A stretch of 64,000 nt of DNA from Thermoplasmata archaeon UBA184 (lineage in GTDB: Archaea; Thermoplasmatota; Thermoplasmata; Lutacidiplasmatales; UBA184), in the NCBI GenBank assembly GCA_002495185.1, contig DAEB01000040.1, positions 29,184 through 93,183 on the forward strand, read 5' to 3'. Under the pieces are notes generated by a model that ran no database searches, was not told the DNA's origin, and worked only from the letters and a program-made list of their open reading frames with translations. Positions 15,680 through 49,145 of this stretch are shown here, piece by piece (position 1 is the first letter of the stretch; each line of letters begins with the position of its first letter). The position numbers were made by a program, and so were the translations under genes.

Positions 15680-15831
15680 CCCGTTACTCCCCTACTGCAC
15701 TCTGGGAACAGTCTGTTGGGCCCGGGCCGACCGACCGGGAGCCCATCACACAGTCTCCCCCAAGAACTTTGCCCGGGAGAGGCCGCCTCACCGGAAACGT
15801 CGGTGCCAAGAAGGCGGCGCCCCGGAGGTCT

Positions 15832-16923
15832 TCACAAATCCCGGAACGCCCGCTCGACCGACTCTCGGAACGCGGCGGGCGAAAACCTCTCCCCGCGCCG
15901 AAGGGACCGTTCGGCAGCCGCCTGGTAGGCCGCCGGCCCGCTGAGGCTCGCGAGCGCCGCGAGCCACGGCCCGGTGTCGGTAGGCTCGAACAATGACCCG
16001 GAATCACCGACGATCTCGGCGAGCGGAGCGATGTTGCTGGCGAGCACCGGCAGGCCGAACGCCATGGCCTCGATCACCGGGCGTCCGAACCCTTCATGCA
16101 GGGAAGGATGCACGAGGACGTCGTTCGTCTCGTACACCTGGTCGATGGAGGCAACCTCCGAGATGGTGGTGAGATTGGGGAGGTTCATCTGCGACACGAG
16201 GGCCCGAGTCTTCGACCGCAGGCGCGACAGGATAGTGAACTGAATCCGGTCGGCGTCCTTCCCTCGTGCCGAGTCCTGCGCGAGTCGGACTACGAACTCG
16301 AGGTTCTTGTAGGGGCGGTCGGTCGACACGCAGAGGACGCGGACCTTCCCCGTGGCTCGAATCCGCTCGAGGGACGCGGAGACGTGTTCCGGGTGGAAAC
16401 CGAGCGAGTGCGTTTCGGGAACGACCCGGACCTGTTCTGGCGATACCCCCTGCTGCGTGACCTCCGTGGCCATCGACTCCGTCGGCACGAAGACTCTTTG
16501 CGCCAACCGCAGGCGGGGAATCGCGTAATGAAACATCCAGGTCGATGCGCGACGGTCGGCGAACCGGGTCAGCGGCTTCAGGTCGTGCACCCGAATGGCG
16601 CACCGAGGGTGGAAGCGAGCGGCGTTGACCAGCGTGGGGTCCATCAGGAACACGATATCGCTGGGGATCCGTCGGAGTCGATCGGGGAACGTCCAGAGGC
16701 GGTTGATCCCCATGTCGACCGTCTGATTGGGGAATCCCAGGCCCCGCACGACGTGGTCGGGGTTCGATAGAGGGGATTGCACGCCTCGATCCAGGCACTG
16801 GTACCAGGAGACCCCGTACCCCAGCTCCGTGAGGGCGGTCCGGAAGGCGAGGCCGTCCAGGCTGATCCCGTCGGTCTTCCCGGAGGCGTTCACGATGGCG
16901 ATCGTCGGGGTGGGGGGTCGCAT
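15832..16923 (-). CDS. GT4-family glycosyltransferase
   Basis: C-terminal HEGFGRPVIEAMAFGLPVLASNIAPLAEIVGDSGSLF is the GT4 E-x7-E nucleotide-sugar-binding motif. Start may be at 16956 (longer ORF) or 16923 (MRPPTP). Confidence 0.8.
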   Translation of the reverse strand: MRPPTPTIAIVNASGKTDGISLDGLAFRTALTELGYGVSWYQCLDRGVQSPLSNPDHVVRGLGFPNQTVDMGINRLWTFPDRLRRIPSDIVFLMDPTLVNAARFHPRCAIRVHDLKPLTRFADRRASTWMFHYAIPRLRLAQRVFVPTESMATEVTQQGVSPEQVRVVPETHSLGFHPEHVSASLERIRATGKVRVLCVSTDRPYKNLEFVVRLAQDSARGKDADRIQFTILSRLRSKTRALVSQMNLPNLTTISEVASIDQVYETNDVLVHPSLHEGFGRPVIEAMAFGLPVLASNIAPLAEIVGDSGSLFEPTDTGPWLAALASLSGPAAYQAAAERSLRRGERFSPAAFRESVERAFRDL

Positions 16924-17210
16924 GGCTTCTGGATCCGCGCGCCGTTCAGAGCGCACGAGTTCTAGACAGGTAGGGTGGCGGCCTCACTTTAGGAGTCGGG
17001 GTCGATTCGACGACGGCGGGTGTGCGTCCGCCTCAGTAGGGGGCGCCGGACTCCTCCGCATGGCGCAGAACCTCGTCCTCCCGCACCCCGGGTTCCCCGA
17101 CAGAGCTCTGGTTTAAGCCGTCGCAGTCCTCGTCTCGGCGTTGCCGCAGTACCAAAGATTAATTACCACTGCACGGGCGTTCTCGAGAGAGGACCGGGGT
17201 TGGGATCACG

Positions 17211-18428
17211 ATGAAACGACTCCTCCTCGTCACCGACCCGATCGGCGGGTCGACGTCGGTCCAGTTTGAGATCCTCAGTTCGCTGACGACGGGCCTTCGA
17301 CCCCGCTACGAGCTCTTCGTCTTCACGCCCTACTGCGACGAGGAACGTTCGGCCGCCCTGAGCCAGCTCGGCTGCCAGCTGATCACCCCCCGGTCTTCCG
17401 GCCTCAGCTTCGAGTCCTTCATCCCCGCGGACGGCCGGCGGAACGAGTCGATGCTCTGGGCGACCAGCTGGGTGCGCGAAGCGCTGTTCGCTCGGAACAG
17501 CTCGGACGCCGCTGCGTGCCTGAGGACGCATCCGGTGGACTACACGGTCAACCTCTCCATGACCGTGCCGGCGCATTGTGACCTCTGGTGGATCCTCGGA
17601 ACCCCCCTCGACCAGACCATCCGGGGGATGGCGGGGTTCAACCTGGTCGCACGTCTCGTCGATGCCGCCTCCCATCGTTTGGTCGCTTCGTTGGACGAGA
17701 GGGTGTTGCGCCGGATCCAGTCCCAATCCGTCCGATTCCTGGCGAACTCTCCGTACCTCCAGAGCCTCTACCGAGACCGGGGCTTCCCGGTGGAGGGGGT
17801 CGTCTACACCCTGAAGGACCTCTCGGGATTCCATCCCACGTCGCCGCATCCGACCCGGGATTACGTCCTCCTCTACGTCGGAAAGGAGCTCGACAACCTC
17901 GACTTCCCGGCCCTCGTCCGCGCGGGGGTTCGGATCGTGGGATTCGGGAACAAGGTTCCCGCTGGCACGCAGCTGAAGAAGTTCACCGAATCGATCGAGT
18001 GGCTGGGGCCCGTGAGCCAGAGCGAGCTCATCGACCTCTACGCGAACGCGCTCTTCACCCTGTTCCCCTTCACGTGCGAGCCGATGGGGCTCGTTCCCAT
18101 CGAGTCGATGGCGTGCGGCACCCCGGTCCTCACCTATGCCCGCCAGGGTCCGGGGTCGACGGTCCTCCCGGGCTCCACCGGTTGGCTCGTCGACACCCCC
18201 GACCAGATGCTCGCCAAAGCGAAGGAGATCTGGTCGCGCCGGGATTCCGGCATCTCCCCCGCCGGGTGCATTCGTCGGGCTCGGGAGTTCATCGGCCAGC
18301 GGATGGTGGATGAGCTGGTCGATTGGATCGAGGGGATGTGCGCGTTGGACGGGTCGAACGCCCCCCTCGACCGCGCCCGCCGGGAACTGACGCCGGGCGC
18401 GAAGCCGATGCTGATGGGCCGGGCGTAG
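17211..18428 (+). CDS. GT4-family glycosyltransferase
   Basis: FPFTCEPMGLVPIESMACGTPVLTYARQGPGSTVLPGSTGWLVD is a GT1/GT4 C-terminal domain. The antisense ORF 17163..18629 was rejected as a GC artefact. Confidence 0.75.
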   Translation: MKRLLLVTDPIGGSTSVQFEILSSLTTGLRPRYELFVFTPYCDEERSAALSQLGCQLITPRSSGLSFESFIPADGRRNESMLWATSWVREALFARNSSDAAACLRTHPVDYTVNLSMTVPAHCDLWWILGTPLDQTIRGMAGFNLVARLVDAASHRLVASLDERVLRRIQSQSVRFLANSPYLQSLYRDRGFPVEGVVYTLKDLSGFHPTSPHPTRDYVLLYVGKELDNLDFPALVRAGVRIVGFGNKVPAGTQLKKFTESIEWLGPVSQSELIDLYANALFTLFPFTCEPMGLVPIESMACGTPVLTYARQGPGSTVLPGSTGWLVDTPDQMLAKAKEIWSRRDSGISPAGCIRRAREFIGQRMVDELVDWIEGMCALDGSNAPLDRARRELTPGAKPMLMGRA

Positions 18429-18444
18429 GATCCGGCGCTGCCGG

Positions 18445-19485
18445 CTAGTCCACGCGGATCTGCTTTCGATAGGCCGCGCGACCGATGGAGGGAGCGACGA
18501 GGCAGAGAATCCCGGCGAGAATCGTCGGGAGGCTCTCCCGGACCGGGTACGTGTCCCGGTAGCGGAGGAGTCCGCGAAGCGGTGCCGCGAAGTCTCGCCG
18601 TCTCGAAGCAGGGTCTCGGCAGGCTTCAATCAACTGTACGAGAAGCAGCCGTGCGTCCATGAGGCGGAGGACCTGCGCGTTCCCCGAGCTCGCCACGAAC
18701 TCGCGGATGACGCGGTAATCCCTCTCCGCGAGCTGCGCGAACTCCAGCATCTTCTTCGACCTCGCCTCGGCCAGGCCGGAACCGGCGAGGGACGTGTTGT
18801 CTTCGTGGATCCGGTAGCGCGTCAGGAGCGCGTCGTCCAGGAGGACCGAGTACTCGGATACCAGAGCGGAGAAGAAGAACAGGGTATCGACCGTCGCGAT
18901 GAGACGCTTCAGGTAGGGGAGCGAACGCTCGACGAGTTCGCGACGGACCGCGCTCGAGCTGACGTTGAAGTCCGGGTGGCGAAAGGCGAGCTGGCGCAAG
19001 GATTCCGCGGTCTTCGAGGATGCGAGGAACAGGGTGCCTTTGGAGCGGGAGGGCCCCGACCCGAAACGAGGCACCGAGCGAAGGTCGAGGAACTCCCCCT
19101 TCGGGCCGATGAAGCTCGCCCGGTTCCCGTAGAATCCGAGGTCGCCCCGAGAATCGAAGTACGCCGCGATCGTTCGGAGGCGCGAGGGCTCGAAGAGGTC
19201 GTCGTCGTCCAGCACGAGGAGGATTCGGCCTCGACTTCGAGCCACCCCGGCGGCGACCTTGAGCGCCCCCGGCTGTTCGGTGCAAATGATCGACGTGGCG
19301 CCCACCTCCCGGAAGTACGATTCGAGGGCCGCGTCCTCGTAATTCTTGACGACCACGACCTCGAACTTCGACCGGTCCAGGTCCTGGCGAACGACGCTCT
19401 CCACCGCACCTCGGAGATACTGGACCCGGTTGTGAGCGAGCACGATCACCGAGATCTGGGGGTCGCCGTTCGTTGGCCCGGTCAA
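18445..19485 (-). CDS. GT2-family glycosyltransferase (paralog 1 of 3)
   Basis: ISVIVLAHNRVQYLRGAVESVVRQ...FEVVVVKNYED...ILLVLDDDDLFEP is a GT-A fold with the DxD motif. ~45% identical over its length to ORF 22285..23325. Confidence 0.8.
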   Translation of the reverse strand: MTGPTNGDPQISVIVLAHNRVQYLRGAVESVVRQDLDRSKFEVVVVKNYEDAALESYFREVGATSIICTEQPGALKVAAGVARSRGRILLVLDDDDLFEPSRLRTIAAYFDSRGDLGFYGNRASFIGPKGEFLDLRSVPRFGSGPSRSKGTLFLASSKTAESLRQLAFRHPDFNVSSSAVRRELVERSLPYLKRLIATVDTLFFFSALVSEYSVLLDDALLTRYRIHEDNTSLAGSGLAEARSKKMLEFAQLAERDYRVIREFVASSGNAQVLRLMDARLLLVQLIEACRDPASRRRDFAAPLRGLLRYRDTYPVRESLPTILAGILCLVAPSIGRAAYRKQIRVD

Positions 19486-19791
19486 TGGTCGTCCCCCTCC
19501 AAAGGCTCCCGAGCAGGCCCGGGGTCCTGGTTCGGCCTCCCCTCACTATAACCGTCGCGGTCCCACACAAAACCACGGGGAACGGACAGCGGGCGGGCGA
19601 TCCGATGGATTCACGGCTCTCCACCAACGAGCGGCGGTGGACGAAGGCACCGACCGGACCGGCGCGGCGGAATCCCGTTCGGTACCCGCGGGGCGACCGA
19701 CCGTCTCCAAGAGGGTTCTTATAACCCCGGAACTCGCTGGCAGAACGGGCTGACTTCCGGTGGGTTCACAATCCGGTGGTGGTCGCCGGCT

Positions 19792-22260
19792 GTGGAGACA
19801 AAGAGTGGCACCGATCTCAACGGTGGGCTGCCCGAGCGGAGGAGGGTCGATGAGCCCTGGTCGCCGGCTCGAGCCACTCGACCCGAGCCACCAACGACCC
19901 CGGGACCCCGAGGGATGGTAGGGATGAATCCCCCGCCGGATTCGTCCCAGGAGACCGAGAAAGGTCGAGCGACCGACTCGGAGACAGGCGAGCGCGTCGC
20001 GGGCCTCCTTCCACGGCCCGAGGGTCTCCTGCTGCTCCTCGTCGTCACGGCCTTCTCCCTGCTGTACACGGGGCTCAGCTTCCTTCGATACACCGAATTC
20101 TACGCCGAGAACTGGGACCTCGGAATCAACATGCAGGCGGCGTGGACGAACGACCACGGCTACTTCGCCTTCAGTTCTGCTCTCTCCGAAGGCGTCCGGG
20201 CGCAATCGTTCTACTTCATCCACCCGGCCTACCTGATGTACCCCGTTTCTTGGGTCTACAACCTGGCGCCCTACGCGCTCACGCTGTTCGCGATCCAGGC
20301 GGTGGTCCTGGCCTCGTCGGCGATTCCCCTCTACCTCCTGGGTCGACAGGCGGCCGTGCCCCCGAAGATCGCGTTCGCGGGGATCGCGATCTACCTCGCC
20401 TCTCTCCCCATCCTCTCCGGATTCCTGTTCGACTACCACTGGGAGGCGTTCATTCCCGCGTCGTTCCTTTGGACCTTCTACCTGTGGGGGAAGGGCCGCT
20501 ACTGGTGGGCCGCGCTCCCGGCGACGCTCGGTCTCTTCACGATCGAGGTGTTCGCCGCACTCCTTCTCGCGATCGCCGCATACTTTGCCTGGCCCTACAT
20601 TCGCGCCCTCTTCACGCCTCCGAGGAAGCACTGGGACCAGGTCCGGAGGACCCTCGCCGGTCCGGCACGACCTCTCCTCGGCCTCGTCGCGCTGGCCATC
20701 GTAGGATTCCTCGGGCCCGTCTTCGTGGCGTGGTACTGGCTTCCCTCACTGACCGGCGCGACCCCGGTGTTCCCGCCGCCTCCCCCACACAACATCATCG
20801 GCATTCCGTACTGGGGCGTCTCCGCTTCGAACCTCGGACCTCGCCTGTTCTACTGGCTCATCCTTCTCTCGTCGTTCGGGTTCCTTCCCCTCCTTCACCG
20901 GCAGAGGCTGCTGATCCTGAGCATTCCGTGGGTCCTCTACTCGGTGGTGATGACCCCCAACCCCGCGTTCACTCTGATCCGGTATCACTACTCGTTGATC
21001 GCCGTGGCTCCGCTCGCGATCGGATTCTTGGAAGGATTGGGTGCGATGACCCGCTCATCCGACCGCGAGTCGGTCGCGGGGCTGCCGTTCTGGGGCTGGC
21101 TGGTCCTCCTCGTGCCCGTCTTCGTGGTCGGAGTGATCGCACCTCTCACGTTGATTCGACCGACGACCACGGACCTCTGGGTCGGCCTCGGGATCGCTCT
21201 CTGGGTGCTGGTCGGCTTCTTGGCGATGCGATTCGTCGCGCGCCGGAGGGCATCGACCCCCCCTCGAGACCCCCGCGGAACGGGGCCCGGCCCGGCGAGG
21301 CGTCGCACCGCTCTCCGGGTGACGCTCATCGTCTCCCTCGTCGTGCTGGTCTCGAGCAATATCGCGCTCTCCCCGCTGAATCCGGCGACGTTCCTCGGCC
21401 CGGGGGAGGCGAGCTACTCGTTCACCTACTCGCCGAGTCCGAGCTTCGACCAGATGCCCGGGCTCCTCTCCCACATTCCCTCCGGAGCTTCGGTCTTCGC
21501 ATCGGACAACCTCTTCCCGTTCGTCGCCAACAACCCGCGGGCGTACTCCACGTTCTGGTATCCGGGTCCGATCCCCTATCTTCCGTTCAACGCGTCGAAT
21601 CTGCCGGAGGTCGTCCTCCTGAGCTCGACGCAATGGTTCCTCCCAACGTTCCTGAACGGGGTGCTGTTCAACCAGAGCGTCTACGGGCTCGTCTACGTCA
21701 TCTATGGGAACCAATACCCCGGGTCGATCTTCCTCTACGAACTGGGGTATTCCGGTTCGAGCCACGTGGTCGAGGCAACACCATTTCCGGCGACGACCGT
21801 CCTCTGCGGCAATGATCTTGCGATCGGTCCGTCGGGCTCGGTCGCTCCGCTGTCGGGATCCCGATGCGGGAGCATCATCGAGAGCCGCCCGGCCACGAAC
21901 CTTTCGGGGAACAACGCCACGATCTGGTACGGGCCGTACTCGGACCTGCTCCCGGGCAACTACACCGTCAAGATCTCCCTTCGGGGGGAGTTGAGCGGCC
22001 CCGGGCCGGCCAACTCCGCCGTGCTGGTCATGAACGCCAACGCGGCGGGGGTGCCCTACTGGTACGACGTGGTGGTCTACGAGAATCAGATCTCCCCGAC
22101 GCAGTGGACCAACCTGACGTTCCATTTCTCGCTCGGCGCCCCCCGACCGCTCGCCGAGTGGCGAGGCTACCTCGCCGGTGCGACCGTCAGCGGGACGTTC
22201 GTCCCGGGAAGCTGCCAGCTGAACTACATCGAGGTCGACTACACGTCCGGACCGTACTGA
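19792..22260 (+). CDS. large polytopic membrane protein (822 aa), GT-C-like/DUF2079-like; paralog of 13373..15679
   Basis: FYAENWDLGINMQAAWTNDHG, LTLFAIQAVVLASSAIPLYLLGRQAA, DNLFPFVANNPRAY, SVYGLVYVIYGNQYPGSIFLYELGY and IWYGPYSDLLPGNY are all collinear with the paralog. The start is uncertain (an in-frame Met at 19915 is also possible). The antisense ORFs 19546..20631 and 21055..22125 were rejected. Confidence 0.7.
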   Translation: METKSGTDLNGGLPERRRVDEPWSPARATRPEPPTTPGPRGMVGMNPPPDSSQETEKGRATDSETGERVAGLLPRPEGLLLLLVVTAFSLLYTGLSFLRYTEFYAENWDLGINMQAAWTNDHGYFAFSSALSEGVRAQSFYFIHPAYLMYPVSWVYNLAPYALTLFAIQAVVLASSAIPLYLLGRQAAVPPKIAFAGIAIYLASLPILSGFLFDYHWEAFIPASFLWTFYLWGKGRYWWAALPATLGLFTIEVFAALLLAIAAYFAWPYIRALFTPPRKHWDQVRRTLAGPARPLLGLVALAIVGFLGPVFVAWYWLPSLTGATPVFPPPPPHNIIGIPYWGVSASNLGPRLFYWLILLSSFGFLPLLHRQRLLILSIPWVLYSVVMTPNPAFTLIRYHYSLIAVAPLAIGFLEGLGAMTRSSDRESVAGLPFWGWLVLLVPVFVVGVIAPLTLIRPTTTDLWVGLGIALWVLVGFLAMRFVARRRASTPPRDPRGTGPGPARRRTALRVTLIVSLVVLVSSNIALSPLNPATFLGPGEASYSFTYSPSPSFDQMPGLLSHIPSGASVFASDNLFPFVANNPRAYSTFWYPGPIPYLPFNASNLPEVVLLSSTQWFLPTFLNGVLFNQSVYGLVYVIYGNQYPGSIFLYELGYSGSSHVVEATPFPATTVLCGNDLAIGPSGSVAPLSGSRCGSIIESRPATNLSGNNATIWYGPYSDLLPGNYTVKISLRGELSGPGPANSAVLVMNANAAGVPYWYDVVVYENQISPTQWTNLTFHFSLGAPRPLAEWRGYLAGATVSGTFVPGSCQLNYIEVDYTSGPY

Positions 22261-22284
22261 GCGGCGACCCGCCTCCCACGGTGA

Positions 22285-23325
22285 CTAGCCCCTCTCCGAG
22301 CGTTCCACCTCCCGGGCGTACAGCCATCGACCGAACCCGGGGGCGACGGTGAAGAGCCAGAGAGCGCGTCGCAATCGCGTCTCGGACCGCACGAAGTATG
22401 TCCGCTTCTGGCGAGCGAGGTCTCGACGCAGACGGGCGAACTCCTCCCTCGGCGTGGTCGGTTCTCGAAGGGCCTGGTACGCTCGTTGCACGGCGAGAAC
22501 GCCGTCGGCCTCCTCCGTTGCGCTCCGGTCGCCCGTGGCGCGCACGGCCTCCGCCAGCCTCGCGTAGCTCGGAAGGAAGAGCTTCGAGAATCCGGCGCGG
22601 CCCGCCAGCGGGGAAACGCCGGTCCGGACGTCGAGCGAGATGTTGCGGGGGTGGATCCGATACTCGGTCAGAACCTCGGGCTCGATACACAGGTCGAGCG
22701 GTGACGTGAGCGCCGCAAAGAACACCAGCCCGTCGAGCAGGCGGTAGCCGGCCAGGTCCATCCCCCGGACGAACGGGGTGACGACCTCCTTGCGGACCGC
22801 CATACTGCTGCTGTTGAAATCGATGCCGAGATCCGGAAGCTGGCGGAGCTGCTCCACTCGGCCGGGGCCCGAGAGCACGATTCTTCCCGAGCGGACCGAG
22901 TTCCTTCGCTGGCGGGCGCGGAACTCGCTGTTCGGCAACTCGTTCCCGGCCGCATCGATGACCGCGTAGTTGTTCCGGCAGAACCCGATCCTCTCGCTCG
23001 ACCGAAAGAGCGTTGCGAGAGCGCGAAGCCGCTCGGGACGGTATCGATCGTCGTCGTCCAGAAACGTGAGGACCGTCCCTCGGCTTGCCTCGACCCCCGC
23101 GCGAATGGCCGGCCCGATATCGCCGGGGTCCACCGGAACCGACCGTCCGTTGAGGGCCTGGACGGCCCGCTCGAGCGGTTCGCTCTCATAATCGCGGACC
23201 ACGACGAGCTCGAACTCGGATGGGTCCAGGGTTTGCCGACGCACCGATTCGACCGCTTCGAGAACGTAGTCCGGATGGCGAGATGCCATCACGATGACGC
23301 TGATGTACGGGTCGGTCGGGGTCAT
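22285..23325 (-). CDS. GT2-family glycosyltransferase (paralog 2 of 3)
   Basis: ISVIVMASRHPDYVLEAVESVRRQ...FELVVVRDYES...TVLTFLDDDDRYRPERL. Collinear with 18445..19485 and 38750..39781. Confidence 0.8.
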   Translation of the reverse strand: MTPTDPYISVIVMASRHPDYVLEAVESVRRQTLDPSEFELVVVRDYESEPLERAVQALNGRSVPVDPGDIGPAIRAGVEASRGTVLTFLDDDDRYRPERLRALATLFRSSERIGFCRNNYAVIDAAGNELPNSEFRARQRRNSVRSGRIVLSGPGRVEQLRQLPDLGIDFNSSSMAVRKEVVTPFVRGMDLAGYRLLDGLVFFAALTSPLDLCIEPEVLTEYRIHPRNISLDVRTGVSPLAGRAGFSKLFLPSYARLAEAVRATGDRSATEEADGVLAVQRAYQALREPTTPREEFARLRRDLARQKRTYFVRSETRLRRALWLFTVAPGFGRWLYAREVERSERG

Positions 23326-24742: not shown

Positions 24743-26071
24743 ATGTCCGAGAGCGTAGGAGCGGCGCCGGCATCGCAGCCGCCATCGGGACTCAAGCGCG
24801 TGCTCGTCTTCCCCGGGGGGACGGAGGTCGGTCTCGAGATCTGGCGCTCGCTCCGCTGGCACCGACAGGTCGAGCTGTATTCGGCGGGGGCACCGGTTTC
24901 CAACCACGCCCCCTACGTGTTCGCGCGGCACTTCGAGGTGCCGATGGTGACCGACCCCCGCTGGTTCCCGATCCTGAAGGAGATCGTGGAGCGGGAGCGG
25001 ATCGACTTCATTTTTCCGGGCCATGACGACATCGTCGAAGCGCTGGCCCAGCACCGAGATGACCTTCGCGCCCTCGTCGTGACGTCCCCCACCGAAACCT
25101 GCGAAACGTGCCGATACAAGTCGCGGACGTACGATGCGCTCTCGGGCGTCGTCCCGATCCCCCGCCGGTACTCCGCCGCCGCCGAGGTCGACGCGTTCCC
25201 CGTGTTCGCCCGGCCCGACCGCGGTCAGGGCTCCCAGGACGCGCATCTCGTCGCGGACGCGTCCGAGCTGGAGGCGCTGCTGCTTCGCGCCCCCGGCCGC
25301 TACATCGTCACGGAGTACCTTCCGGGCGAGGAGTTCACGGTCGATTGCCTCACGGACCGAGAGGGGAGGCTGATCTACTGCGCCGGGCGCCGTCGCATTC
25401 GCGTTCGCAACGGCATCTCGGTCGACACCGTGACGGTGGACAATCCGACGTTCCAGGAGTATGCGACGGCCATCAACCGTCGCCTTCGGCTTCGGGGGGG
25501 CTGGTTCTTCCAGGTGAAGTTCTCGAAGCAAGGGACCCTCACGCTCCTCGAGGTCGCGCCCCGCATCGCGGGGGCGATGGCCCTGGACCGGGTGCGCGGA
25601 GTGAACATCGCCCTGCTGAGCTTGTTCATCGTCCAAGGGATGGACGTGGAGGTGCTGCCGAACCCGATGCCGGTCGAGATGGACCGGGCGCTCACGAACC
25701 GGTATCGGTTCGACCTCCGATTCACTCGGGCGTACCTCGACCTGGACGACTCGCTGATCGTTCGGGGTCAAGTGAACACCGAGCTCGTCCAGTTCCTGTT
25801 CCAATGCGTGAATCGCGGGGTTCGCTTGACGCTCCTCACTCGCCACGCGGGAGACCCGCTCGAAACCCTCCGTCGATTCCGCCTCGCCGGCGTGTTCGAC
25901 GAGATACGAACCGTGCCGGCGGGAACGCCGAAGAGCTCCGCGATCGATCAGACCCGCGACGCGATCTTCATCGATGACAGCTTCGCCGAGCGGCGGGAGG
26001 TCGCGCGGGCCACGGGCCTGCCGACCTTCGACAGCAGCATGGTCGAGCTTCTTCTCGACGACCGGTCCTGA
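24743..26071 (+). CDS. ATP-grasp domain protein fused to a C-terminal HAD-like hydrolase domain
   Basis: Central YIVTEYLPGEEFTVDCLTDREGRLIYCAGRRR..GGWFFQVKF is an ATP-grasp fold. C-terminal ~140 aa (VRLTLLTRHAGDP...DAIFIDDSFAERREVA) looks like a HAD-type hhhhDD motif. The antisense ORF 24641..26080 was rejected. Confidence 0.6.
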   Translation: MSESVGAAPASQPPSGLKRVLVFPGGTEVGLEIWRSLRWHRQVELYSAGAPVSNHAPYVFARHFEVPMVTDPRWFPILKEIVERERIDFIFPGHDDIVEALAQHRDDLRALVVTSPTETCETCRYKSRTYDALSGVVPIPRRYSAAAEVDAFPVFARPDRGQGSQDAHLVADASELEALLLRAPGRYIVTEYLPGEEFTVDCLTDREGRLIYCAGRRRIRVRNGISVDTVTVDNPTFQEYATAINRRLRLRGGWFFQVKFSKQGTLTLLEVAPRIAGAMALDRVRGVNIALLSLFIVQGMDVEVLPNPMPVEMDRALTNRYRFDLRFTRAYLDLDDSLIVRGQVNTELVQFLFQCVNRGVRLTLLTRHAGDPLETLRRFRLAGVFDEIRTVPAGTPKSSAIDQTRDAIFIDDSFAERREVARATGLPTFDSSMVELLLDDRS

Positions 26072-26133
26072 ATCACCCACCGGGCCGGTGGCCCACGAAC
26101 GCCCTTATCTGCGGCAGGGACCTTTGAGCGAGG

Positions 26134-27255
26134 ATGGGCCACCGCAGGTCGAAGAAGCCGGTGCTACCGGTGACCCTCCCGAGCCTTCCGCCGTTCGAAG
26201 AGTACACCGAGCTCCTTCGGGAAGTCTGGGATACCCATTGGCTGACGAACCAGGGGCCGCTCGCCGACCGTCTGGAGGCGGGCCTCCGGCGGTACCTGCC
26301 GTCCCCGCACGTCGACGCGGTGACGAACGGCACGCTGGCCCTTCAACTGAGCTACCGAGCGGTCTTTCCCCGCAAGGGAGTGGTGATCACCACCCCCTTC
26401 ACGTTCGCGGCGACGACGACATCTCTCGTCTGGGAGGGCTACACGCCACGGTTCGTCGACATCGACCCGGTCACTTTCAACCTGGACCCGGCTCTCGTCG
26501 ACGCCGCCCTCCGCGACGATGTGGTGGGGATCGTCGCGGTCCATGTCTTTGGGAACCCGGCGGGCGGCCCCGCGCTGTCGCGGCTCGCGGCCTCACGGAA
26601 CGTGAAGCTGGTGTTCGATGCGGCTCACGCCTTCGGGGTCCGGACCCGCCCCGTCCCCCTCTGGTCGCTGGGGAACGCCTCGACGTTGAGCTTCCACGCC
26701 ACGAAGAGCTTCCACTCCTTTGAGGGCGGCGCGGTCGTCACCTCCGAGGCGAACGTCTCGCGCCGGGTGCGCCGTCTTCGGAACTTTGGGCTCCGGGGCC
26801 CGGAAGAGGTCGTGGAGGCGGGCATCAACGCGAAGTTGAACGAAGCTCAGGCCGCGATGGGCCTTCTCAACCTCCGATACATCGATGGCTGGATCCGCCT
26901 CCGCAAGGAACGCTACGACCGGTACCGCTCCGAACTCGAGGGGACGGGCGGGGTCCAGTTCCAGGAGCTGGCAAAGTGCCGCTACAACTACACGTACATG
27001 CCGATCCTTCTGCCGACGAAGAGGCTTCGGGACCGCGTCGCCCGCGATCTGGAACGCTCCGGAGTCCGCCCGCGCAAGTACTTCTTTCCCCCGACGCACG
27101 TCGCGCCGTATCTCCGTGGGTCGAGGAGAGCGTCCTGCCCGGTCGCGGAGAGCGTCTCCTCCCGTGTCCTCTGCCTGCCGCTCCACCCTGCCCTTGGGGT
27201 TTCGGACGTCCGCCGCATCTCGGCGATCGTGCGGACGGTCGTTCAGGGTCGATAG
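26134..27255 (+). CDS. DegT/DnrJ/EryC1/StrS-family PLP-dependent sugar aminotransferase
   Basis: LSFHATKSFHSFEGGAVV (PLP-lysine region) and the N-terminal LP..LPPFEEY...W...WLTNQGPL are typical of nucleotide-sugar aminotransferases. Confidence 0.85.
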   Translation: MGHRRSKKPVLPVTLPSLPPFEEYTELLREVWDTHWLTNQGPLADRLEAGLRRYLPSPHVDAVTNGTLALQLSYRAVFPRKGVVITTPFTFAATTTSLVWEGYTPRFVDIDPVTFNLDPALVDAALRDDVVGIVAVHVFGNPAGGPALSRLAASRNVKLVFDAAHAFGVRTRPVPLWSLGNASTLSFHATKSFHSFEGGAVVTSEANVSRRVRRLRNFGLRGPEEVVEAGINAKLNEAQAAMGLLNLRYIDGWIRLRKERYDRYRSELEGTGGVQFQELAKCRYNYTYMPILLPTKRLRDRVARDLERSGVRPRKYFFPPTHVAPYLRGSRRASCPVAESVSSRVLCLPLHPALGVSDVRRISAIVRTVVQGR

Positions 27256-27335
27256 CCCTCGGAGCTCCCGTGCGGACGCGGGCGGCTCGAGACTTTACTA
27301 ACACCGGTGTCTGTGGCCCGGTCAGGTAGGCAACG

Positions 27336-28310
27336 GTGAAGGTAGTCCTCACGGGAGGCGCCGGCTTCATCGGCTCGAACTTGGCCCATCACTGGGCCGC
27401 CCGGCACCCCGAAGACACCGTGCTCGTGGTGGACGCCCTCACGTACGCCGGTCGCCGGGAGTCCCTCGCGGACCTGAACCATCGGCCCGGCTTCTCGTTC
27501 TTGAAGGGGGACATCACGGACCCCCACGTCTGGGACGAGGCCCTTCCGGGCACCGACCTCGTGCTGCACCTGGCGGCGGAGACGCACAACGACCGGGCGA
27601 TCGCGGACCCGCTCGTCTTCGTCCGAACCAACGTCCTCGGGACCGCCCAGCTTCTCGAGGGATGCCGCCGGCACGACGTGCCGAGGTTGCACCACGTCTC
27701 CACGGACGAGGTGTTTGGCTCCCTCGCCCTCGACTCTCCCGACCGATTCGACGAGAACTCCCCCTACCGGCCCCGCGGGCCTTACTCCGCATCGAAGGCG
27801 TCCGCCGACCACCTCGTCCGCGCCTGGTCCGAGACGTACGGGCTCGCGTACACCCTTTCGAACTGCGGCAACAACTTCGGTCCCTTTCAGCATCCCGAGA
27901 AGTTCATTCCCCTCGCGATCACGAGAGCCCTCCGGGGAGGCCGCATCCCGTTGTACGGGGACGGGAAGAACGTACGAGACTGGATCTACGTCATCGATCA
28001 CTGCGAGGCGGTCGACCTCATTGCCCACCGCGGCCAGGTCGGTTCCACCTACCTGGTTTCGGCCGAAAACGAGCTCTCGAACCTCGAGGTCCTGAGACGC
28101 CTACTCGCTCTTCTCGGAACGGACTGGAAGATCGTCGAGCACGTCACCGACCGGCCCGGCCACGACCGAAGGTACGCTCTCGACCCCGGCCGTTTGAAGG
28201 CGGAGCTAGGATGGCAGCCTCGATTCACGTTCGACGAGGGGCTCGAGGCCACGGTCGAATGGTACCGTGCCCACGAGACGTGGTGGTCTCCCCTCCTCGC
28301 TCCGTCGTAA
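27336..28310 (+). CDS. rmlB: dTDP-glucose 4,6-dehydratase
   Basis: MKVVLTGGAGFIGSNLAHH (GxxGxxG Rossmann motif), YSASKASADHLVRAW (YxxxK) and DGKNVRDWIYVIDHCEAV are diagnostic of RmlB. Confidence 0.9.
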   Translation: MKVVLTGGAGFIGSNLAHHWAARHPEDTVLVVDALTYAGRRESLADLNHRPGFSFLKGDITDPHVWDEALPGTDLVLHLAAETHNDRAIADPLVFVRTNVLGTAQLLEGCRRHDVPRLHHVSTDEVFGSLALDSPDRFDENSPYRPRGPYSASKASADHLVRAWSETYGLAYTLSNCGNNFGPFQHPEKFIPLAITRALRGGRIPLYGDGKNVRDWIYVIDHCEAVDLIAHRGQVGSTYLVSAENELSNLEVLRRLLALLGTDWKIVEHVTDRPGHDRRYALDPGRLKAELGWQPRFTFDEGLEATVEWYRAHETWWSPLLAPS

Positions 28311-28398: not shown

Positions 28399-29934
28399 TT
28401 GGTTCGACCTCCGATCCAGGAAGGTCGCCGGGTACCAGTTACGCGGAGCTCACGGGAGGTGCCGTTCCGGCCCGACGTCGTGGTCGTCGTGCTCGATTGC
28501 GTACGCGCCCAAGACTGCCCGGGCGGAGCCGATCCCGCCCCGAACTTGCCCGTGATGCAAGGACTTCGCCACGACTCCGTCGTCTTCCCGAAAGCCGTGG
28601 CTCCGGCGCCCTGGACCATTCCCTCGCACTTTTCGATCACATCCGGGCTCTATCCCTGGCAGCACGGGGTCCACGCCCAGAATCGGCTCGTGCCTCGGGC
28701 GGGGCTCCCCTCGACGGTTCGCGACCTTCGGTGCTCGGGCTACAGTACCGCGTTGTTCTCGGCCAATGCGTTCTTGGGATCCGATTCCGCCTTCGACCGC
28801 GACTTTGAGCTCTCGACGGTCGCGACGCCGAGGGAGCTCCTGGTCCGGCGAGCCCCCCACTCCCGTTCCAAGCCCAAGAGGAGAGGCTCCCAAGGTGGCA
28901 GGCTTCTCGGGTCCGAGATCATCGGGAATCCGGTAGGTAGGATCCTTCGACGGTACCCGTTCCTGTTCGACGTGGTGAATCGGACCTACCGCCAGGTCCG
29001 GCAGCTGAGCGGACCGCCGGTGGTGGCGCCCTGGATCGAGCCCGCCTTCCGAGAATGGCTGCGAACGGTGCCCCGGAGCCAACCGCTCTTCGGAATGGTC
29101 AACTTCCTCGATGCCCACGAACCGTACATGACGGACCCCGAGTCCACCCGGAAGCTCACCGATTGGTTCCGGGAGGCCCGGATCTCCCAACGGGCGTGGA
29201 GGTATCTGGGAGATTCGAGGGCGGAGAGTCGTTCGCTCAGCCAGCTCTTCCGGAGGTTGTACCAACGGACCCTGAGCACGCTCGACCACCGGGTCGGGAA
29301 CCTGATTCGAGCGCTCAAGGAGGCGGGTCGGTGGGATTCGACCCTGTTCGTACTCACCAGTGACCACGGTCAGGCACTGTTGGAGAAGGGATTCTTGTTT
29401 CATGGAACCCGCCTCGACGAGGAGATCGCTCGGGTTCCCCTGACCGTACGGTTCCCCTCGGGGTCCCACGGTGGGTCCACGGCGAAGGGGTGGGCGAGCC
29501 TGGTGGACATCCTTCCTACGATTCATCACGCCGCTGGTTTGGCGGTGCCGAGTTCGTGCGAGGGACGCGACCTGGTCGACATGCTCGACCGCGAGCGGGA
29601 GGATGCGGTCTACTCCGTCGGAGACGGGGTGTTCGACCTGCAATCGGCCACGCGGTTTCTGCCCCGAACCACGCTCGATACTCTGAACACCTTGAGCGCG
29701 GCCGTCTATCGGAACGAGTTCAAGGTGCGGTTCCATCGACACCCTGACACGTTCGAGGTCTACAATCTTGAAAACGACCCGGGCGAAACGAACAACCTCT
29801 GGCCCCTAGAGGAACCGCTCGTCCGAGCGGCCGGCCAAGAGGCGCAACGGGTCGTCGAGATCATGTCCCACACGGATGCGGGCCGGCGGGACCGGAGCGT
29901 CGCCGCGCGACTCGCATCCTGGGGCTACCACTGA
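28399..29934 (+). CDS. sulfatase-like alkaline-phosphatase-superfamily protein with non-canonical T-x-P-x-H active-site motif
   Basis: PWTIPSHFSITSGLYPW aligns to the sulfatase C-T-P-S-R-AALLTGR region with Cys replaced by Thr and Arg by His. The C-terminal metal-binding SDHGQ is conserved. The start is uncertain (TTG at 28399 or GTG near 28459, which follows GGGAGG). Paralog of 46562..48085. Confidence 0.75.
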   Translation: MVRPPIQEGRRVPVTRSSREVPFRPDVVVVVLDCVRAQDCPGGADPAPNLPVMQGLRHDSVVFPKAVAPAPWTIPSHFSITSGLYPWQHGVHAQNRLVPRAGLPSTVRDLRCSGYSTALFSANAFLGSDSAFDRDFELSTVATPRELLVRRAPHSRSKPKRRGSQGGRLLGSEIIGNPVGRILRRYPFLFDVVNRTYRQVRQLSGPPVVAPWIEPAFREWLRTVPRSQPLFGMVNFLDAHEPYMTDPESTRKLTDWFREARISQRAWRYLGDSRAESRSLSQLFRRLYQRTLSTLDHRVGNLIRALKEAGRWDSTLFVLTSDHGQALLEKGFLFHGTRLDEEIARVPLTVRFPSGSHGGSTAKGWASLVDILPTIHHAAGLAVPSSCEGRDLVDMLDREREDAVYSVGDGVFDLQSATRFLPRTTLDTLNTLSAAVYRNEFKVRFHRHPDTFEVYNLENDPGETNNLWPLEEPLVRAAGQEAQRVVEIMSHTDAGRRDRSVAARLASWGYH

Positions 29935-39781: not shown

Positions 39782-39833
39782 ATTGCACTCAGCCTGGAAA
39801 GGGCCACAGTTTCGTGATTTCTCGGCCATTACC

Positions 39834-44464: not shown

Positions 44465-45319
44465 ATGAATCTAGATCTGGAAATGGCCCCCCACTCACAC
44501 GGACCTGACCTAGAGCACTCGCAGGGCGGAAGTCATCAACCTGGACGGGGCGACGTCAGTGCCGAACTGTTGCGCTTCGTATATGCCCGGGGAGATCATG
44601 TCTCGCGTTACAAGCTTGCCGCAGCCCTCTCGCGAGGATGCCGCGTCCTAGACTTTGGCTGTGGACACGGGTTCGGTGCATTGTTTTTGGAACCGAGCTG
44701 TGAAAGTATCGTTGGAGTTGACACCGACCGGGGAGCCATCGAATGGGCGAGGTCTAACATTGAATCGCGAGCATCGAACGCGCGTTTCTTCCACGTTGAC
44801 GATCCCAAGATTAGGGGTCTGAATCGGCACTTGGACATCGTCTTGTCGTTCGAAGTCATCGAGCATGTCCATGATCCTCTCGCTCACTTGGGCACTCTTT
44901 GTGGGTTCGTGAGGCCGGGAGGTAGAATCGTCCTTTCGACTCCTAATGGAGGGATATCCGCCGGGAATCCTAGGATGTTCATGTCTCCCTATCACGTGAA
45001 CGAGTTCAGCTTGGGACAGCTTTCAAAACTTGTCGGGGCACGCTCGCGGTCGGCGTCTTATCTCGGACAGAGGAGAATTGATCGTCTCGATTCGACCATT
45101 CAGCAAGTCCGCAAGAGAGTGTTCTATCCGAAGGCAGGCCATGAGTCGACGCGCCCCGCGGACAGTTACAGGAGCGCTCTCGGGAGGAGTCTGGGAGACA
45201 CACTGGTAAACAAGATACCCAATTTTGCATCATTTTGGGAACTTAATCCAGTAAGCCAACAGTCACACGACCTTGGCTCGTACACGCACTTCATAGCCAT
45301 TTTCACCCCGGAATCCTAG
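44465..45319 (+). CDS. class I SAM-dependent methyltransferase
   Basis: VLDFGCGHGFGALFL (motif I), VGVDTD (motif II acidic), LDIVLSFEVIEHV, VRPGGRIVLSTPN. Confidence 0.75.
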   Translation: MNLDLEMAPHSHGPDLEHSQGGSHQPGRGDVSAELLRFVYARGDHVSRYKLAAALSRGCRVLDFGCGHGFGALFLEPSCESIVGVDTDRGAIEWARSNIESRASNARFFHVDDPKIRGLNRHLDIVLSFEVIEHVHDPLAHLGTLCGFVRPGGRIVLSTPNGGISAGNPRMFMSPYHVNEFSLGQLSKLVGARSRSASYLGQRRIDRLDSTIQQVRKRVFYPKAGHESTRPADSYRSALGRSLGDTLVNKIPNFASFWELNPVSQQSHDLGSYTHFIAIFTPES

Positions 45320-45357
45320 AATGAGCAACGTGCGTACGGAACTGCGGTCTAGGTTGC

Positions 45358-48248: not shown

Positions 48249-49145
48249 CTAGCCTAAGTGCGTGTAAAACCAGTGTGCAATCGCCCTCGTCGGTCTGGCT
48301 AGTCGCGGGTCGTTCATCATTCTAATCCCGATAAGGGATAGGAACATCGCCGGGATCGTTCGACTGAGATTCAACTTTGTGCTTGGGTCAGCACTCCAGT
48401 TCACAGGAACTTCCACAACACGGAACCCAGCACGTTCGAAGTGGAACAGCAGCGAAGCATCGAAGGCCCAATTCGTCAGGAAGACCTTCGGGAGGATACT
48501 CATGACCGCTTGGCGTCTGAAGAATTTGGCCCCGCATTGCGTGTCTTTTAGCTTCAAGCCCAAAACCACTCTCACCAGGAGGTTCCAGCTTTTCGAGAAC
48601 ACTCTTCTCGAAAAACGTGGATAAAGATCGCGATTGCTGCGATTGTCCCAGCGACTAGCAATTGCGCCTTCAGCAGTGGTCAACTCTGCCAAGAGATATG
48701 CCATGCTCACAGCAGTTATCGGCGCGTCCGCATCGATGAATCCGACGAGGTCGAACTTAGCTCTCCGAAAGCCTTCCATGACGGCGCCACCTTTGCCGAG
48801 ACGGTCTTCGAATTCAATAGCCCGTACCCCACGAGATTCGAATATTCGGGCGACCTCGGCCGTCCGGTCGGCTACACCATCGACGATCACGAGAACTTCG
48901 AAGGGTCTCCCGTACGATTCCAGGAGAGGCAGGTATCTCTCGAGTGCAATCGGAAGCCGTGCTTCTTCGTTCCAGGCGGGGATAATGAGGCTCACTCCAT
49001 CGGGCCCTTCAACCGGCTCTAACTGCTCTTCGTACCTTGACCCTGATACGGCCACGGGAAACTCGACGGCCGAACGTAGCGCCGCACTCCTGGGGAGGCT
49101 CGGCATCATGAAGGGGACCTCATGACTGGGGCGCAACAGATCCAA
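48249..49145 (-). CDS. GT2 glycosyltransferase, dolichyl/polyprenyl-phosphate hexose synthase-like (DPM1/AglD-like)
   Basis: SLIIPAWNEE, VLVIVDGVADRTAEVA, RLGKGGAVMEGF, FIDADAP, QCGAKFFRR are the motif set of Dol-P-Man/Glc synthase-type GT2 enzymes. Confidence 0.8.
   Translation of the reverse strand: MDLLRPSHEVPFMMPSLPRSAALRSAVEFPVAVSGSRYEEQLEPVEGPDGVSLIIPAWNEEARLPIALERYLPLLESYGRPFEVLVIVDGVADRTAEVARIFESRGVRAIEFEDRLGKGGAVMEGFRRAKFDLVGFIDADAPITAVSMAYLLAELTTAEGAIASRWDNRSNRDLYPRFSRRVFSKSWNLLVRVVLGLKLKDTQCGAKFFRRQAVMSILPKVFLTNWAFDASLLFHFERAGFRVVEVPVNWSADPSTKLNLSRTIPAMFLSLIGIRMMNDPRLARPTRAIAHWFYTHLG

Follow-up and report, generated by a model that had tools for sequence, protein, structure and literature searches.

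Two sulfatase-fold paralogs with a T-x-P-x-H motif from an uncultured Thermoplasmata archaeon are candidate glycan sulfotransferases

In a 64,000-nucleotide stretch of contig DAEB01000040.1 from Thermoplasmata archaeon UBA184, hereafter the window, two paralogous proteins, ORF A and ORF B, combine a sulfatase fold with a threonine at the position where sulfatases carry formylglycine (FGly). Both most likely add a group, sulfate or phosphate, to glycans rather than remove one. The explanation that we tentatively favor, although we hold it with somewhat less than even confidence, is that they are cytoplasmic glycan sulfotransferases with a covalent Thr intermediate and the Thermoplasmata counterparts of Agl30 and Agl31. 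In Halobacterium salinarum, Agl30 (VNG1056C, UniProt Q9HQQ3) and Agl31 (VNG1057C, Q9HQQ2) act as sulfotransferases on the N-glycan (Zaretsky et al. 2025, PMC11980604).

Both reading frames are present on the + strand exactly as a sequence-only reading of this DNA had given them. In the longest forms, ORF A covers 28399..29934 (511 aa) from an upstream TTG start at 28399, and ORF B covers 46562..48085 (507 aa), also from an upstream TTG. The true starts are likely the GTG at 28459 for ORF A (28459..29934, 491 aa), a sulfatase-fold, putative Thr-nucleophile enzyme of the alkaline phosphatase (AP) superfamily, and the ATG at 46598 for its paralog ORF B (46598..48085, 495 aa), rather than the upstream TTGs. 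In homologues, the metal-binding Asp lies at median residue 16, no further than about 13-16 residues from the N-terminus, which leaves no room for a signal peptide; the public JGI call for ORF A, with its start at 28555, removes this Asp. For ORF B, an exact-sequence look-up with two alternative starts returned no record, and its context was annotated by hand. The two proteins are full-length paralogs with 27% identity (BLASTP, E 1e-43). Both match the Pfam family Sulfatase PF00884 (ORF A, 3.8e-25; ORF B, 1.7e-18) as well as Phosphodiest PF01663 (E 3.4e-14 and 8.9e-6, respectively). No TM segment was found in either protein, the maximal 19-residue Kyte-Doolittle means being 1.14 for ORF A and 0.82 for ORF B. 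Their earlier description as soluble sulfatase-fold paralogs without a TM domain is borne out by these results and by the fold described below.

Based on structure prediction (AF2 pLDDT 90.8), the ORF A and ORF B proteins have the S1-sulfatase fold, with its two alpha/beta subdomains and the Asp ... Asp-His/Asn metal ligands. The best structural matches are FGly sulfatases, choline sulfatase, and PMH, and both choline sulfatase (Foldseek E 2e-24) and the PMHs are among the closest solved folds. In ORF A, the first metal-ligand Asp (D33 in the 511-aa numbering) lies in L-D-C-V (28492..28503, +) and is followed by a conserved Arg; this segment aligns with VDQWRA of PMH and DGFRA of ENPP3. The nucleophile motif is W-T-I-P-S-H in ORF A (28612..28629, +; aa 72-77), in which Thr73 stands in the FGly column and His77 in the Arg column, and W-T-L-P-A-H in ORF B (46751..46768, +; aa 64-69). 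When the two proteins are aligned with sulfatases and PMHs of solved structure, by sequence and by profile, Thr falls on the FGly/Cys position of C-x-P-x-R and His on its Arg position, in agreement with the sequence-only reading. Further along ORF A, V-N-F-L-D-A-H-E-P-Y (29098..29127, +) contains an invariant Asn and an invariant His, which may serve as general acid/base residues or as ligands of a second metal. The C-terminal DHGQ metal site, also recognized previously, is kept at aa 321-325 of both proteins, as SDHGQ in ORF A (29359-29373, +) and GDHGQ in ORF B (47522-47536, +). This site provides the Asp-His metal ligands, and an invariant His follows at +12, roughly on the sulfatase/PMH Lys column (S-D-H-G-Q ... 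L-F-H-G, 29359..29406, + in ORF A; G-D-H-G-Q ... L-F-H-G, 47522..47569, + in ORF B).

The metal ligands Asp, Thr, and Asp-His are thus all retained. Moreover, the 20 residues that are invariant in the family, among them T53, H57, N103, N215, H220, D302, H303, Q305, and H315, are all kept in both ORF A and ORF B, with the metal-ligand set complete, and the family carries an extra invariant His/Asn set. In contrast, the sulfate-binding Lys/His loop (G-K-x-H) and the distal Lys of true sulfatases are gone from both proteins. The sulfatase G-K-W-H loop is overlain by an S-A-N-P loop of the family (5g2v alignment), and the invariant His315 occupies the column of the PMH distal Lys or the one beside it.

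The motif is not a local artefact, since W-T-x-P-x-H is present in 122 of 122 close homologues; consistent T-x-P-x-H among homologues was the check proposed on first inspection. Another 134 representatives of 50%-identity clusters carry TxPxH in 105 cases and SxPxH in 10, and degenerate motifs (TxPx[V/T/I/F/C], SD[R/F/A/S]G) occur in a minority of family representatives. Of 120 haloarchaeal relatives, 104 have T and 14 have S at the nucleophile position, and all 118 carry the His. Exchange between T and S only is what is expected of a direct hydroxyl nucleophile, and judging from these alignments the Thr is likely the catalytic nucleophile. A large clade of uncultured Thermoplasmata includes ORF A and ORF B; relatives number thousands in Halobacteria and are scattered in Nitrososphaerales and several bacterial phyla. 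Over its whole length, the Thermoplasmata clade shows homology to a very large clade of haloarchaea (hhalign prob 100, E 3.3e-70), with only ~24-26% identity to the haloarchaeal T-x-P-x-H clade.

We compared ORF A and ORF B with the other branches of the AP superfamily. FGly S1 sulfatases, choline sulfatase (6G5Z/7PTH), and PMH (2VQR, 2W8S) share with them the metal-ligand positions Asp ... nucleophile ... Asp-His, and PMH shares the DxxRA motif as well. Choline sulfatase and PMH are cytoplasmic and have a C-terminal extension, as do ORF A and ORF B. Unlike the FGly sulfatases, the two proteins have Thr/Ser for FGly, His for the CxPxR Arg, S-x-N in place of the GKxH loop, and His for the distal Lys. 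With C/S-x-P-x-R absent, an invariant His in place of its Arg, and the GKxH loop lost, the earlier claim that they are not FGly-dependent sulfatases stands. Going by the motif, maturation by FGE or anSME cannot take place, and unlike FGly sulfatases the two proteins are probably transferases rather than hydrolases.

The nucleophile segment corresponds to that of the NPPs position by position. In particular, ENPP3 DGFRA...TFPNHYTIVTGLYPESHG aligns with ORF A LDCVRA...WTIPSHFSITSGLYPWQHG, with D, R, T, P, H, GLYP, and HG all in register (NPP signature D-G-F-R ... T-F-P-N-H ... TGLYP..HG), and NPPs (ENPP1-3, Xac NPP; PF01663) share the Asp-His pair that follows the central strand. Similarly, EptA, MCR-1, EptC, LtaS, and GacH, the Thr branch of PF00884, have a Thr nucleophile and an Asp-His followed by a His ~12 residues on, and the D-H...H(+12) region of ORF A gives local matches to EptA/MCR models. 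The Thr had been likened to the nucleophile of NPP and PEtN enzymes, and the likeness persists, as only Ser replaces Thr and the TFPNH motif of NPP lines up with the segment. PEtN and phosphoglycerol transferases form a covalent Thr intermediate and transfer to glycan or lipid acceptors; they have an N-terminal multi-TM domain and an extracytoplasmic catalytic domain, whereas ORF A and ORF B have no hydrophobic segment. We decided against placing the two proteins in the LtaS/EptA-type or NPP-type families because of the missing TM domain and the fold ranking.

Both genes are located in glycosylation clusters, as previously proposed, and are flanked by NDP-sugar, glycosyltransferase, and methyltransferase genes. 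Upstream of ORF A, a co-directional cassette (24743..28310, +) encodes an ATP-grasp protein, a DegT aminotransferase, and an RmlB-like 4,6-dehydratase, with gaps of 62, 80, and 148 nt. The rest of this glycan-assembly region (13373..23325, both strands) holds two DUF2079 genes (13373-15679, - and 19792-22260, +), two GT4 genes, and two GT2 genes. Upstream of ORF B (44465..46485, +) are a co-directional SAM methyltransferase and a GT4/GT1 glycosyltransferase, with gaps of 38 and 112 nt. The GT2 gene downstream (48249..49145, -) is DPM1-like on sequence inspection and belongs to the neighbor cluster found most often with the family (18 loci). One of the two glycan clusters is carried by a low-GC island. 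FGE, anSME, Sat, and CysC were all absent from the window by Pfam on called ORFs, tblastn, and motif scan. The window thus differs from the Agl30/Agl31 setting in having no sulfate-activation gene, and no aglB was seen in its annotated part.

Recognizable glycan genes were found in 31 of 56 related loci. In one of them (L006), a GT4 gene overlaps the start of the family member, and the homologous haloarchaeal clade is placed in AglB-anchored N-glycosylation clusters. Genomes contain many paralogs of the ORF A/B type, each within a glycan cluster. In 7 loci, an ATP-sulfurylase gene is found no more than ~8 kb from family members, and in two of these a GT2 gene follows it directly; an APS kinase is near family members in 2 further loci, so that about 9 of the 56 Thermoplasmata loci, only ~16%, have either gene. 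A count of 12 ATP-sulfurylase loci for cluster c6 was rejected as partly a fused-ORF artefact, the motif check leaving the 7 distinct loci. A classical sulfotransferase domain is absent from the fully annotated sulfurylase locus L003. Because all related loci were chosen for containing a family member and PF01663 paralogs co-occur, the association of sulfate genes is with the type of cluster. Furthermore, some arrays mix family members with PF01663-only and PF04185 phosphoesterase paralogs, and some loci resemble phosphate-scavenging arrays.

As reported, N-glycan sulfation in vivo requires VNG1056C and VNG1057C, which also suffice for it; these sulfatase-fold proteins sulfate the lipid-linked N-glycan of Halobacterium, their heterologous expression leads to new sulfation, and Agl31 is soluble and cytosolic (PMC11980604). 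The evidence for their activity is genetic, not in vitro, and the paper describes no donor, catalytic residues, or mechanism (PMC11980604). Similar to Agl30 and Agl31, ORF A and ORF B are archaeal, have the sulfatase/AP-superfamily fold, and are encoded in glycosylation gene clusters, and the best solved neighbors common to all four are FA22070 (6HHM) and BT1596 (5G2U/5G2T). This likeness is drawn from fold, cluster setting, and primer-derived C-termini; the VNG1057C 5' and VNG1056C 3' primers gave zero matches against metagenome contigs, as did the primer-derived peptides against word-indexed proteins. The primer-derived C-termini of Agl30/31, HLEDLGYL and LEELGYT, match the tail of the haloarchaeal clade. 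This tail reads L-x-x-L-G-Y in Agl30/31 and W-G-Y in our two proteins: ORF A ends in ...SWGYH (W-G-Y-H and stop, 29920..29934, +) and ORF B in ...AWGYD, with G-Y invariant and in register with the haloarchaeal RLEDLGYLQ (hhalign). As a diagnostic of the T-x-P-x-H clade, the LGY tail was rejected and is no proof of membership, because other AP-superfamily subtypes carry it too (T-A-P-A-M, the PF01663-type T-A-P-A-W, and a short 325-aa haloarchaeal paralog).

In the sulfotransferase mechanism that we propose, the metal-activated Thr would attack an activated sulfuryl donor, PAPS or APS, and a covalent Thr-O-sulfate enzyme would form; this Thr-sulfate intermediate is purely our inference. A Thr ester lacks the gem-diol elimination by which FGly sulfatases release sulfate and would therefore have to be resolved by an incoming hydroxyl. 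This hydroxyl could belong to a sugar in a dolichol-phosphate-linked glycan assembled by the neighboring GT4/GT2 enzymes and would probably be activated by one of the invariant His residues, and the two paralogs would serve two different glycan clusters. The suggestion that the proteins are phospho- or sulfo-transferases or esterases acting on glycans or lipid-linked intermediates has narrowed, with sulfo-transfer now best supported by Agl30/31 and the sulfate-activation genes in related clusters.

The main rival to sulfo-transfer is the transfer or hydrolysis of phosphoryl groups, which we regard as possible but rather unlikely. The Thr would then attack a phosphodiester or pyrophosphate donor, such as a nucleotide-sugar, a CDP-alcohol, or archaetidyl-ethanolamine/-glycerol, with either NPP-like hydrolysis or transfer of phosphoethanolamine, phosphoglycerol, or sugar-1-phosphate onto a glycan as the outcome, as with bacterial EptA/EptC, LtaS, and GacH. 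To our knowledge, all biochemically characterized Thr-nucleophile enzymes of the AP superfamily act on phosphorus. The NPP-like nucleophile segment and the PF01663 matches of both ORFs, the local EptA/MCR matches, and the arrays with phosphoesterase paralogs point in the same direction. Further observations speak against the sulfotransferase reading itself: both sulfate-binding lysines of sulfatases are missing, with His/Asn in their place in a His-rich site that resembles phosphoryl-transfer enzymes (EptA/MCR, NPP), and neither ATP-sulfurylase nor APS kinase is encoded in the window, with few of the related loci (~16%) having one close by. However, all known PEtN and phosphoglycerol transferases have the membrane anchor that ORF A and ORF B lack, the recurring neighbors are sulfate-activation genes and not CDP-alcohol genes, and the sole functional data for sulfatase-fold proteins of archaeal glycosylation clusters lead to sulfation (PMC11980604).

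Hydrolytic trimming or salvage by a cytoplasmic sulfatase- or phosphatase-like esterase using Thr or Ser directly appears quite improbable. Its substrates would be transient sulfate or phosphate on glycan intermediates, or small esters as with choline sulfatase and PMH, and these hydrolases are the closest solved folds. AP-superfamily Ser/Thr enzymes have promiscuous sulfatase and phosphodiesterase activity, and the loci resembling phosphate-scavenging arrays would fit such a role. Against this, translational coupling and co-orientation with glycosyltransferase, methyltransferase, and NDP-sugar genes favor biosynthesis, as do the multiple paralogs per genome, and heterologous Agl30/31 create sulfation instead of removing it (PMC11980604). 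Finally, a non-catalytic sulfatase relic serving as a scaffold or glycan-binding subunit would account for the absence of FGly and for the degenerate motifs in a minority of representatives, but it is very hard to reconcile with the conservation of all 20 invariant columns and the complete metal-ligand set in ORF A and ORF B, and with the tolerance of Thr or Ser alone at the nucleophile position across thousands of sequences.

It was not until 2025 that archaeal proteins with a sulfatase fold were shown to function as glycan sulfotransferases (PMC11980604), and a review of December 2024 lists four sulfotransferase classes (PMC11625862). It is conceivable, though we rate it as somewhat doubtful, that the T/S-x-P-x-H proteins form a large undescribed mechanistic class, in which a hydrolase became, through the switch from FGly to Thr, a sulfuryl transferase of the ping-pong type that passes through a covalent Thr-O-sulfate and is supplied by PAPS or directly by APS. 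If so, the missing mechanism of Agl30/Agl31 would be supplied, and an alkaline-phosphatase-superfamily class would join the four reviewed (PMC11625862). A conserved catalytic signature is now available, consisting of the Thr/Ser nucleophile, the invariant His set, and the loss of the sulfatase Lys/His loop; together with a chemical rationale for transfer rather than hydrolysis on a sulfatase scaffold, it makes the mechanism directly testable. Moreover, many Thermoplasmata and Halobacteria entries named 'sulfatase' or 'arylsulfatase A-like enzyme' cannot be FGly sulfatases. For the organisms themselves, the findings hint that several paralogous enzymes may equip the surface glycans of uncultured Thermoplasmata with sulfate (or phosphate).

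The two sulfatase-fold paralogs, ORF A (28399..29934, 511 aa in its longest form) and ORF B (46562..48085, 507 aa), lie on the + strand where the sequence-only reading had placed them, and their full-length alignment (BLASTP 27% identity, E 1e-43) bears out the proposed paralogy. Both fall in the Pfam family Sulfatase PF00884 (E 3.8e-25 and 1.7e-18), with Phosphodiest PF01663 as a secondary match for each and SGSH_C as a further one for ORF A only, while no NCBIfam model came remotely near its own cut-off against either. The motifs were also located as claimed, namely, WTIPSH (28612-28629) and SDHGQ (29359-29373) in ORF A and WTLPAH (46751-46768) and GDHGQ (47522-47536) in ORF B, all on the + strand. 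Because the N-termini of homologues point there, the true starts are probably GTG 28459 (ORF A) and ATG 46598 (ORF B). The public JGI call for ORF A (protein P0001, 459 aa; the window corresponds to JGI contig Ga0120198_0000106) begins at Met53, nt 28555, and therefore lacks the β-strand LDCV (nt 28492-28503) that carries the metal-binding Asp. Among homologues, the median position of this Asp is residue 16, too close to the N-terminus to accommodate a signal peptide, and no hydrophobic segment was found in ORF A or ORF B (highest 19-residue KD mean 1.14 and 0.82, respectively), in agreement with the claim of soluble proteins without a TM domain.

Aligned by phmmer and by profile with solved sulfatases and phosphonate monoester hydrolases (PMHs), the proteins place Thr at the formylglycine (FGly)/Cys column of C-x-P-x-R and His at its Arg column, confirming the suggested replacement of Cys/Ser and Arg. 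The first homology search returned 211 matches, all named ones being Thermoplasmata MAGs; the best 120 show 32-40% identity and a length of ~500 aa. W-T-x-P-x-H is present in 122/122 close homologues, which carry the motif consistently. Additionally, 20 columns are invariant in the 120-sequence alignment (numbered from nt 28459): W52, T53, P55, H57, G63, Y95, N103, W192, N215, H220, R278, D302, H303, G304, Q305, H315, P327, D350, G489, and Y490. An exhaustive profile search over 1.84 billion cluster representatives, of which the best 150 (each with E < 1e-115; 134 of them new) were considered, shows what is by sequence a large T-x-P-x-H family. TxPxH occurs in 105/134 new representatives, SxPxH in 10/134, and Thr without His in 7/134; the DH pair is absent from a few. 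A minority of the family has degenerate motifs, such as TxPx[V/T/I/F/C] and SD[R/F/A/S]G. Among the proteins P0245, P0253, and P0211, two of ~950-1030 aa combine a signal peptide with an N-terminal sulfatase-like domain (T-I-A-S-H or T-L-T-S-H), and one of 932 aa is an apparent tandem fusion.

An AlphaFold2 model built from the family alignment reached pLDDT 90.8 and pTM 0.94. Its best Foldseek match in the PDB is choline sulfatase (E 2e-24, TM 0.63), followed by carrageenan and Bacteroides sulfatases and the PMHs. The structure comparison figures are 26-34.5 for FGly S1 sulfatases (355-394 residues aligned), 30.1 for YejM, 25.5 for LtaP, 24.7 for MCR-1, 23.8 for EptA, 23.6 for LtaS, and 23.5 for Xac NPP. 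On these figures, the modelled scaffold is that of an S1 sulfatase/PMH rather than of the LtaS/EptA or, probably, the NPP type. By motif, however, the N-terminal catalytic segment of ORF A is NPP-like; this 104-residue segment matches PMH/sulfatases and ENPP1-3 about equally, and ENPP3 DGFRA...TFPNHYTIVTGLYPESHG pairs with ORF A LDCVRA...WTIPSHFSITSGLYPWQHG in the alignment. The sulfatase G-K-x-H loop is replaced by S-A-N-P in the family (5g2v alignment), the distal Lys of PMHs falls at or beside the invariant H315, and EptA/MCR models give weak local matches to the D-H...H(+12) stretch. Collectively, these comparisons show an S1 scaffold with an Asp/Thr/Asp-His ligand set, an NPP-type nucleophile helix, and an invariant His/Asn constellation, from which the sulfatase Lys/His loop has been lost. 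We conjecture that D/E218, H220, and H315 form a second metal site.

Both genes lie inside an extended glycan region of the window (~13 to 49 kb), as their proposed location in glycosylation clusters implied. Directly upstream of ORF A, an ATP-grasp gene, a DegT aminotransferase gene, and an RmlB-like 4,6-dehydratase gene (24743-28310, + strand; gaps of 62, 80, and 148 nt) suggest synthesis of an amino-dideoxy sugar with an amide-linked acyl or amino-acid group. GT4, GT2, and NTP-transferase genes and two genes for DUF2079-type polytopic membrane proteins (13373-15679 and 19792-22260) are also near. ORF B is preceded on the same strand by SAM methyltransferase and GT4/GT1 genes and followed by a GT2 that is DPM1-like on sequence inspection. 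Its cluster lies on a low-GC island (38000-50000; GC 0.52-0.57 vs 0.65-0.68 elsewhere) flanked by PIN-domain genes, and it resembles a glycosylation island that is hypervariable or was acquired horizontally. The cluster is preceded by a 1136-aa ORF without a Pfam match (39681-43091, + strand), which might encode a surface glycoprotein or other glycan-assembly protein; a convergent GT1 gene (43027-44259, - strand) overlaps its 3' end by 65 nt. Genes of the toxin-antitoxin type occur around the glycan regions and encode an AbiEi antitoxin, three PIN-domain proteins, and one RHH partner (3425-4252, 34960-35621, 49578-50021, and 54089-54472). The clusters are flanked by a 1024-aa thermopsin-PKD protease (9247-12321, - strand) and an 816-aa FG-GAP-repeat protein (35787-38237, - strand), which are likely to be secreted to the cell surface and could thus be modified by the glycosylation machinery. 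A search covering the window found no gene for FGE, anSME, ATP-sulfurylase, or APS kinase; the sequence-only reading had proposed looking for the first two elsewhere in the genome.

A scan of GTDB species genomes yielded 494 relatives, the best 80 mostly from Thermoplasmata; more distant members (23-35% identity) belong to Nitrososphaerales, Halobacteriales, DHVE2, and several bacterial phyla. WT[LIV]P[SA]HAS.FTG is present in every distant member inspected, the majority of which terminate in ...LGY(x). Clustering of ORFs from 84 loci placed 94 family copies in 75 of them, with DPM1-like GT2, GT4, RmlA, RmlB, Wzx-type flippase, DUF2079, other 8-10-TM proteins of ~800 aa, Kelch proteins, and PF01663-only paralogs as recurrent neighbours. 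A recognisable glycan gene is present in at least 31 of 56 non-redundant Thermoplasmata loci, and in locus L006 a GT4 gene overlaps the start of the family member. Directly beside 11/65 family genes, on the same strand, lies a large polytopic membrane protein. The recurring ~800-aa polytopic proteins (8-10 TM segments, DUF2079 or no Pfam match; L003 11500-14058, L008 6494-8968, and L013 10786-13458), one of whose starts overlaps the stop of the family gene in L003, may be uncharacterised GT-C-like transferases. Immediately downstream of the family member, four loci encode a conserved ~470-580-aa protein anchored by an N-terminal TM segment and lacking any Pfam match (L052 7337-8749, L071 6438-8036, L078 11073-12653, and L013 15086-16822).

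Within ~8 kb of family members, ATP-sulfurylase (Sat) was found in seven distinct Thermoplasmata loci, in two cases directly upstream of GT2, and APS kinase (CysC; PF01583, E 4e-56 and 1e-53) lies near family members at two further loci. L003, the fully annotated sulfurylase locus, contains no classical sulfotransferase domain. A sulfate-activation gene is thus present at ~9/56 loci, greatly exceeding the 1-2% roughly expected for two single-copy genes, the 56 loci being phylogenetically related and each selected for holding a family member. This gene context offers independent support for a putative link to sulfation. Beside the ATP-sulfurylase of the L034 glycan cluster (Thermoplasmata; 11334-16785) are genes for a PNGase-A-like protein (PF12222) and an FkbM methyltransferase; the ORF call fuses this sulfurylase in frame to an upstream region with no intervening stop codon. 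A second family of the alkaline phosphatase (AP) superfamily, PF01663-only and ~470-630 aa, accompanies the T-x-P-x-H family and Sat/CysC genes in Thermoplasmata (L003 2108-3508 and 5108-6544, L054 9478-10962, L065 9485-10939, and L067 4727-6619). One inspected representative has S-L-P-A-W at the nucleophile, and this equally uncharacterised family is a candidate for sulfuryl or phosphoryl transfer.

Zaretsky et al. 2025 described VNG1056C (Agl30, membrane-associated) and VNG1057C (Agl31, soluble) as 'alkaline phosphatase domain' proteins encoded in the aglB cluster of Hbt. salinarum, with sulfatases BT1596 and FA22070 as the closest structures (PMC11980604). Sugars 3 and 4 of the Dol-P-linked tetrasaccharide depend on them for sulfation, and their expression in Hfx. 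volcanii led to sulfation of its glycan; the paper mentions neither PAPS, a donor, formylglycine, Thr, nor Cys (PMC11980604). A later paper places both at the cytoplasmic face, and the four sulfotransferase classes set out in a review of December 2024 include no AP-superfamily class (PMC11625862). Haloarchaeal relatives of ORF A/B gave 4,256 matches, including many cultured genera; among the 120 listed, the nucleophile position is T in 104 and S in 14, with His in 118/118, and 95 end in ...DLGYLQ and four in ...RLEDLGYL. Over their full length, the haloarchaeal clade and the Thermoplasmata family align (hhalign probability 100, E 3.3e-70, 473 columns), and every catalytic residue as well as the C-terminal tail is in register. 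Halovenus rubra has a member within an AglB-anchored cluster, and Haloplanus salinarum has an overlapping tandem pair and a third copy amid GT2, GT4, flippase, and methyltransferase genes. The C-termini of Agl30/31, read from cloning primers, are ...HLEDLGYL and ...LEELGYT (PMC11980604). RL[EK][DA]LGY(x) also ends other AP paralogs of haloarchaeal clusters (T-A-P-A-M, PF01663-type T-A-P-A-W, and a 325-aa form); the shared tail is seen in L084 (4893-11473), L085 (91-11461), and the window (29920-29934 and 48071-48085), its Thermoplasmata version being WGY(x), and on most bacterial relatives inspected. As judged from these termini, the LGY tail is the mark of a wider AP-superfamily group than the T-x-P-x-H clade; we therefore rejected it as proof that Agl30/31 carry T-x-P-x-H. 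By analogy with choline sulfatase, the tail could be an oligomerisation arm, or else a docking motif.

In FGly sulfatases, the aldehyde hydrate allows the covalent sulfate to be eliminated. A Thr ester is incapable of this elimination and requires attack by an acceptor, as in EptA and LtaS, which are Thr-based transferases. Exchange of FGly for Thr is therefore what would be expected if a hydrolase scaffold had become a transferase. According to SulfAtlas, Thr is not convertible to FGly. The active-site columns, solubility, and clusters all support the initial interpretation of non-FGly enzymes with a Thr nucleophile that are linked to glycans, and the ORF A/B family very probably comprises group-transfer enzymes of this kind in glycan assembly. 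Our best reading of the reaction, held tentatively, is ping-pong sulfuryl transfer, in which the sulfuryl group would be taken up from PAPS or APS and passed to a hydroxyl group on a sugar of a lipid-linked glycan. Transfer of a phosphoryl group, or phosphodiesterase activity, is favoured by the NPP/EptA-like site and by the PF01663 and PF04185 paralogs co-occurring with the family, and we consider it somewhat less likely. A hydrolase for trimming or salvage appears improbable. Members with degenerate motifs may be pseudoenzymes; for ORF A/B, such a role is highly improbable.

Thr in PF00884 has long been known from the LtaS/EptA branch. TxNxE proteins have been discussed by SulfAtlas, and sulfatase-fold sulfotransferases have been in the literature since 2025 (PMC11980604). 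We found no literature description of T/S-x-P-x-H as a signature carried by a complete soluble S1 fold, of its very wide distribution, or of what it means for the mechanism of Agl30/31.
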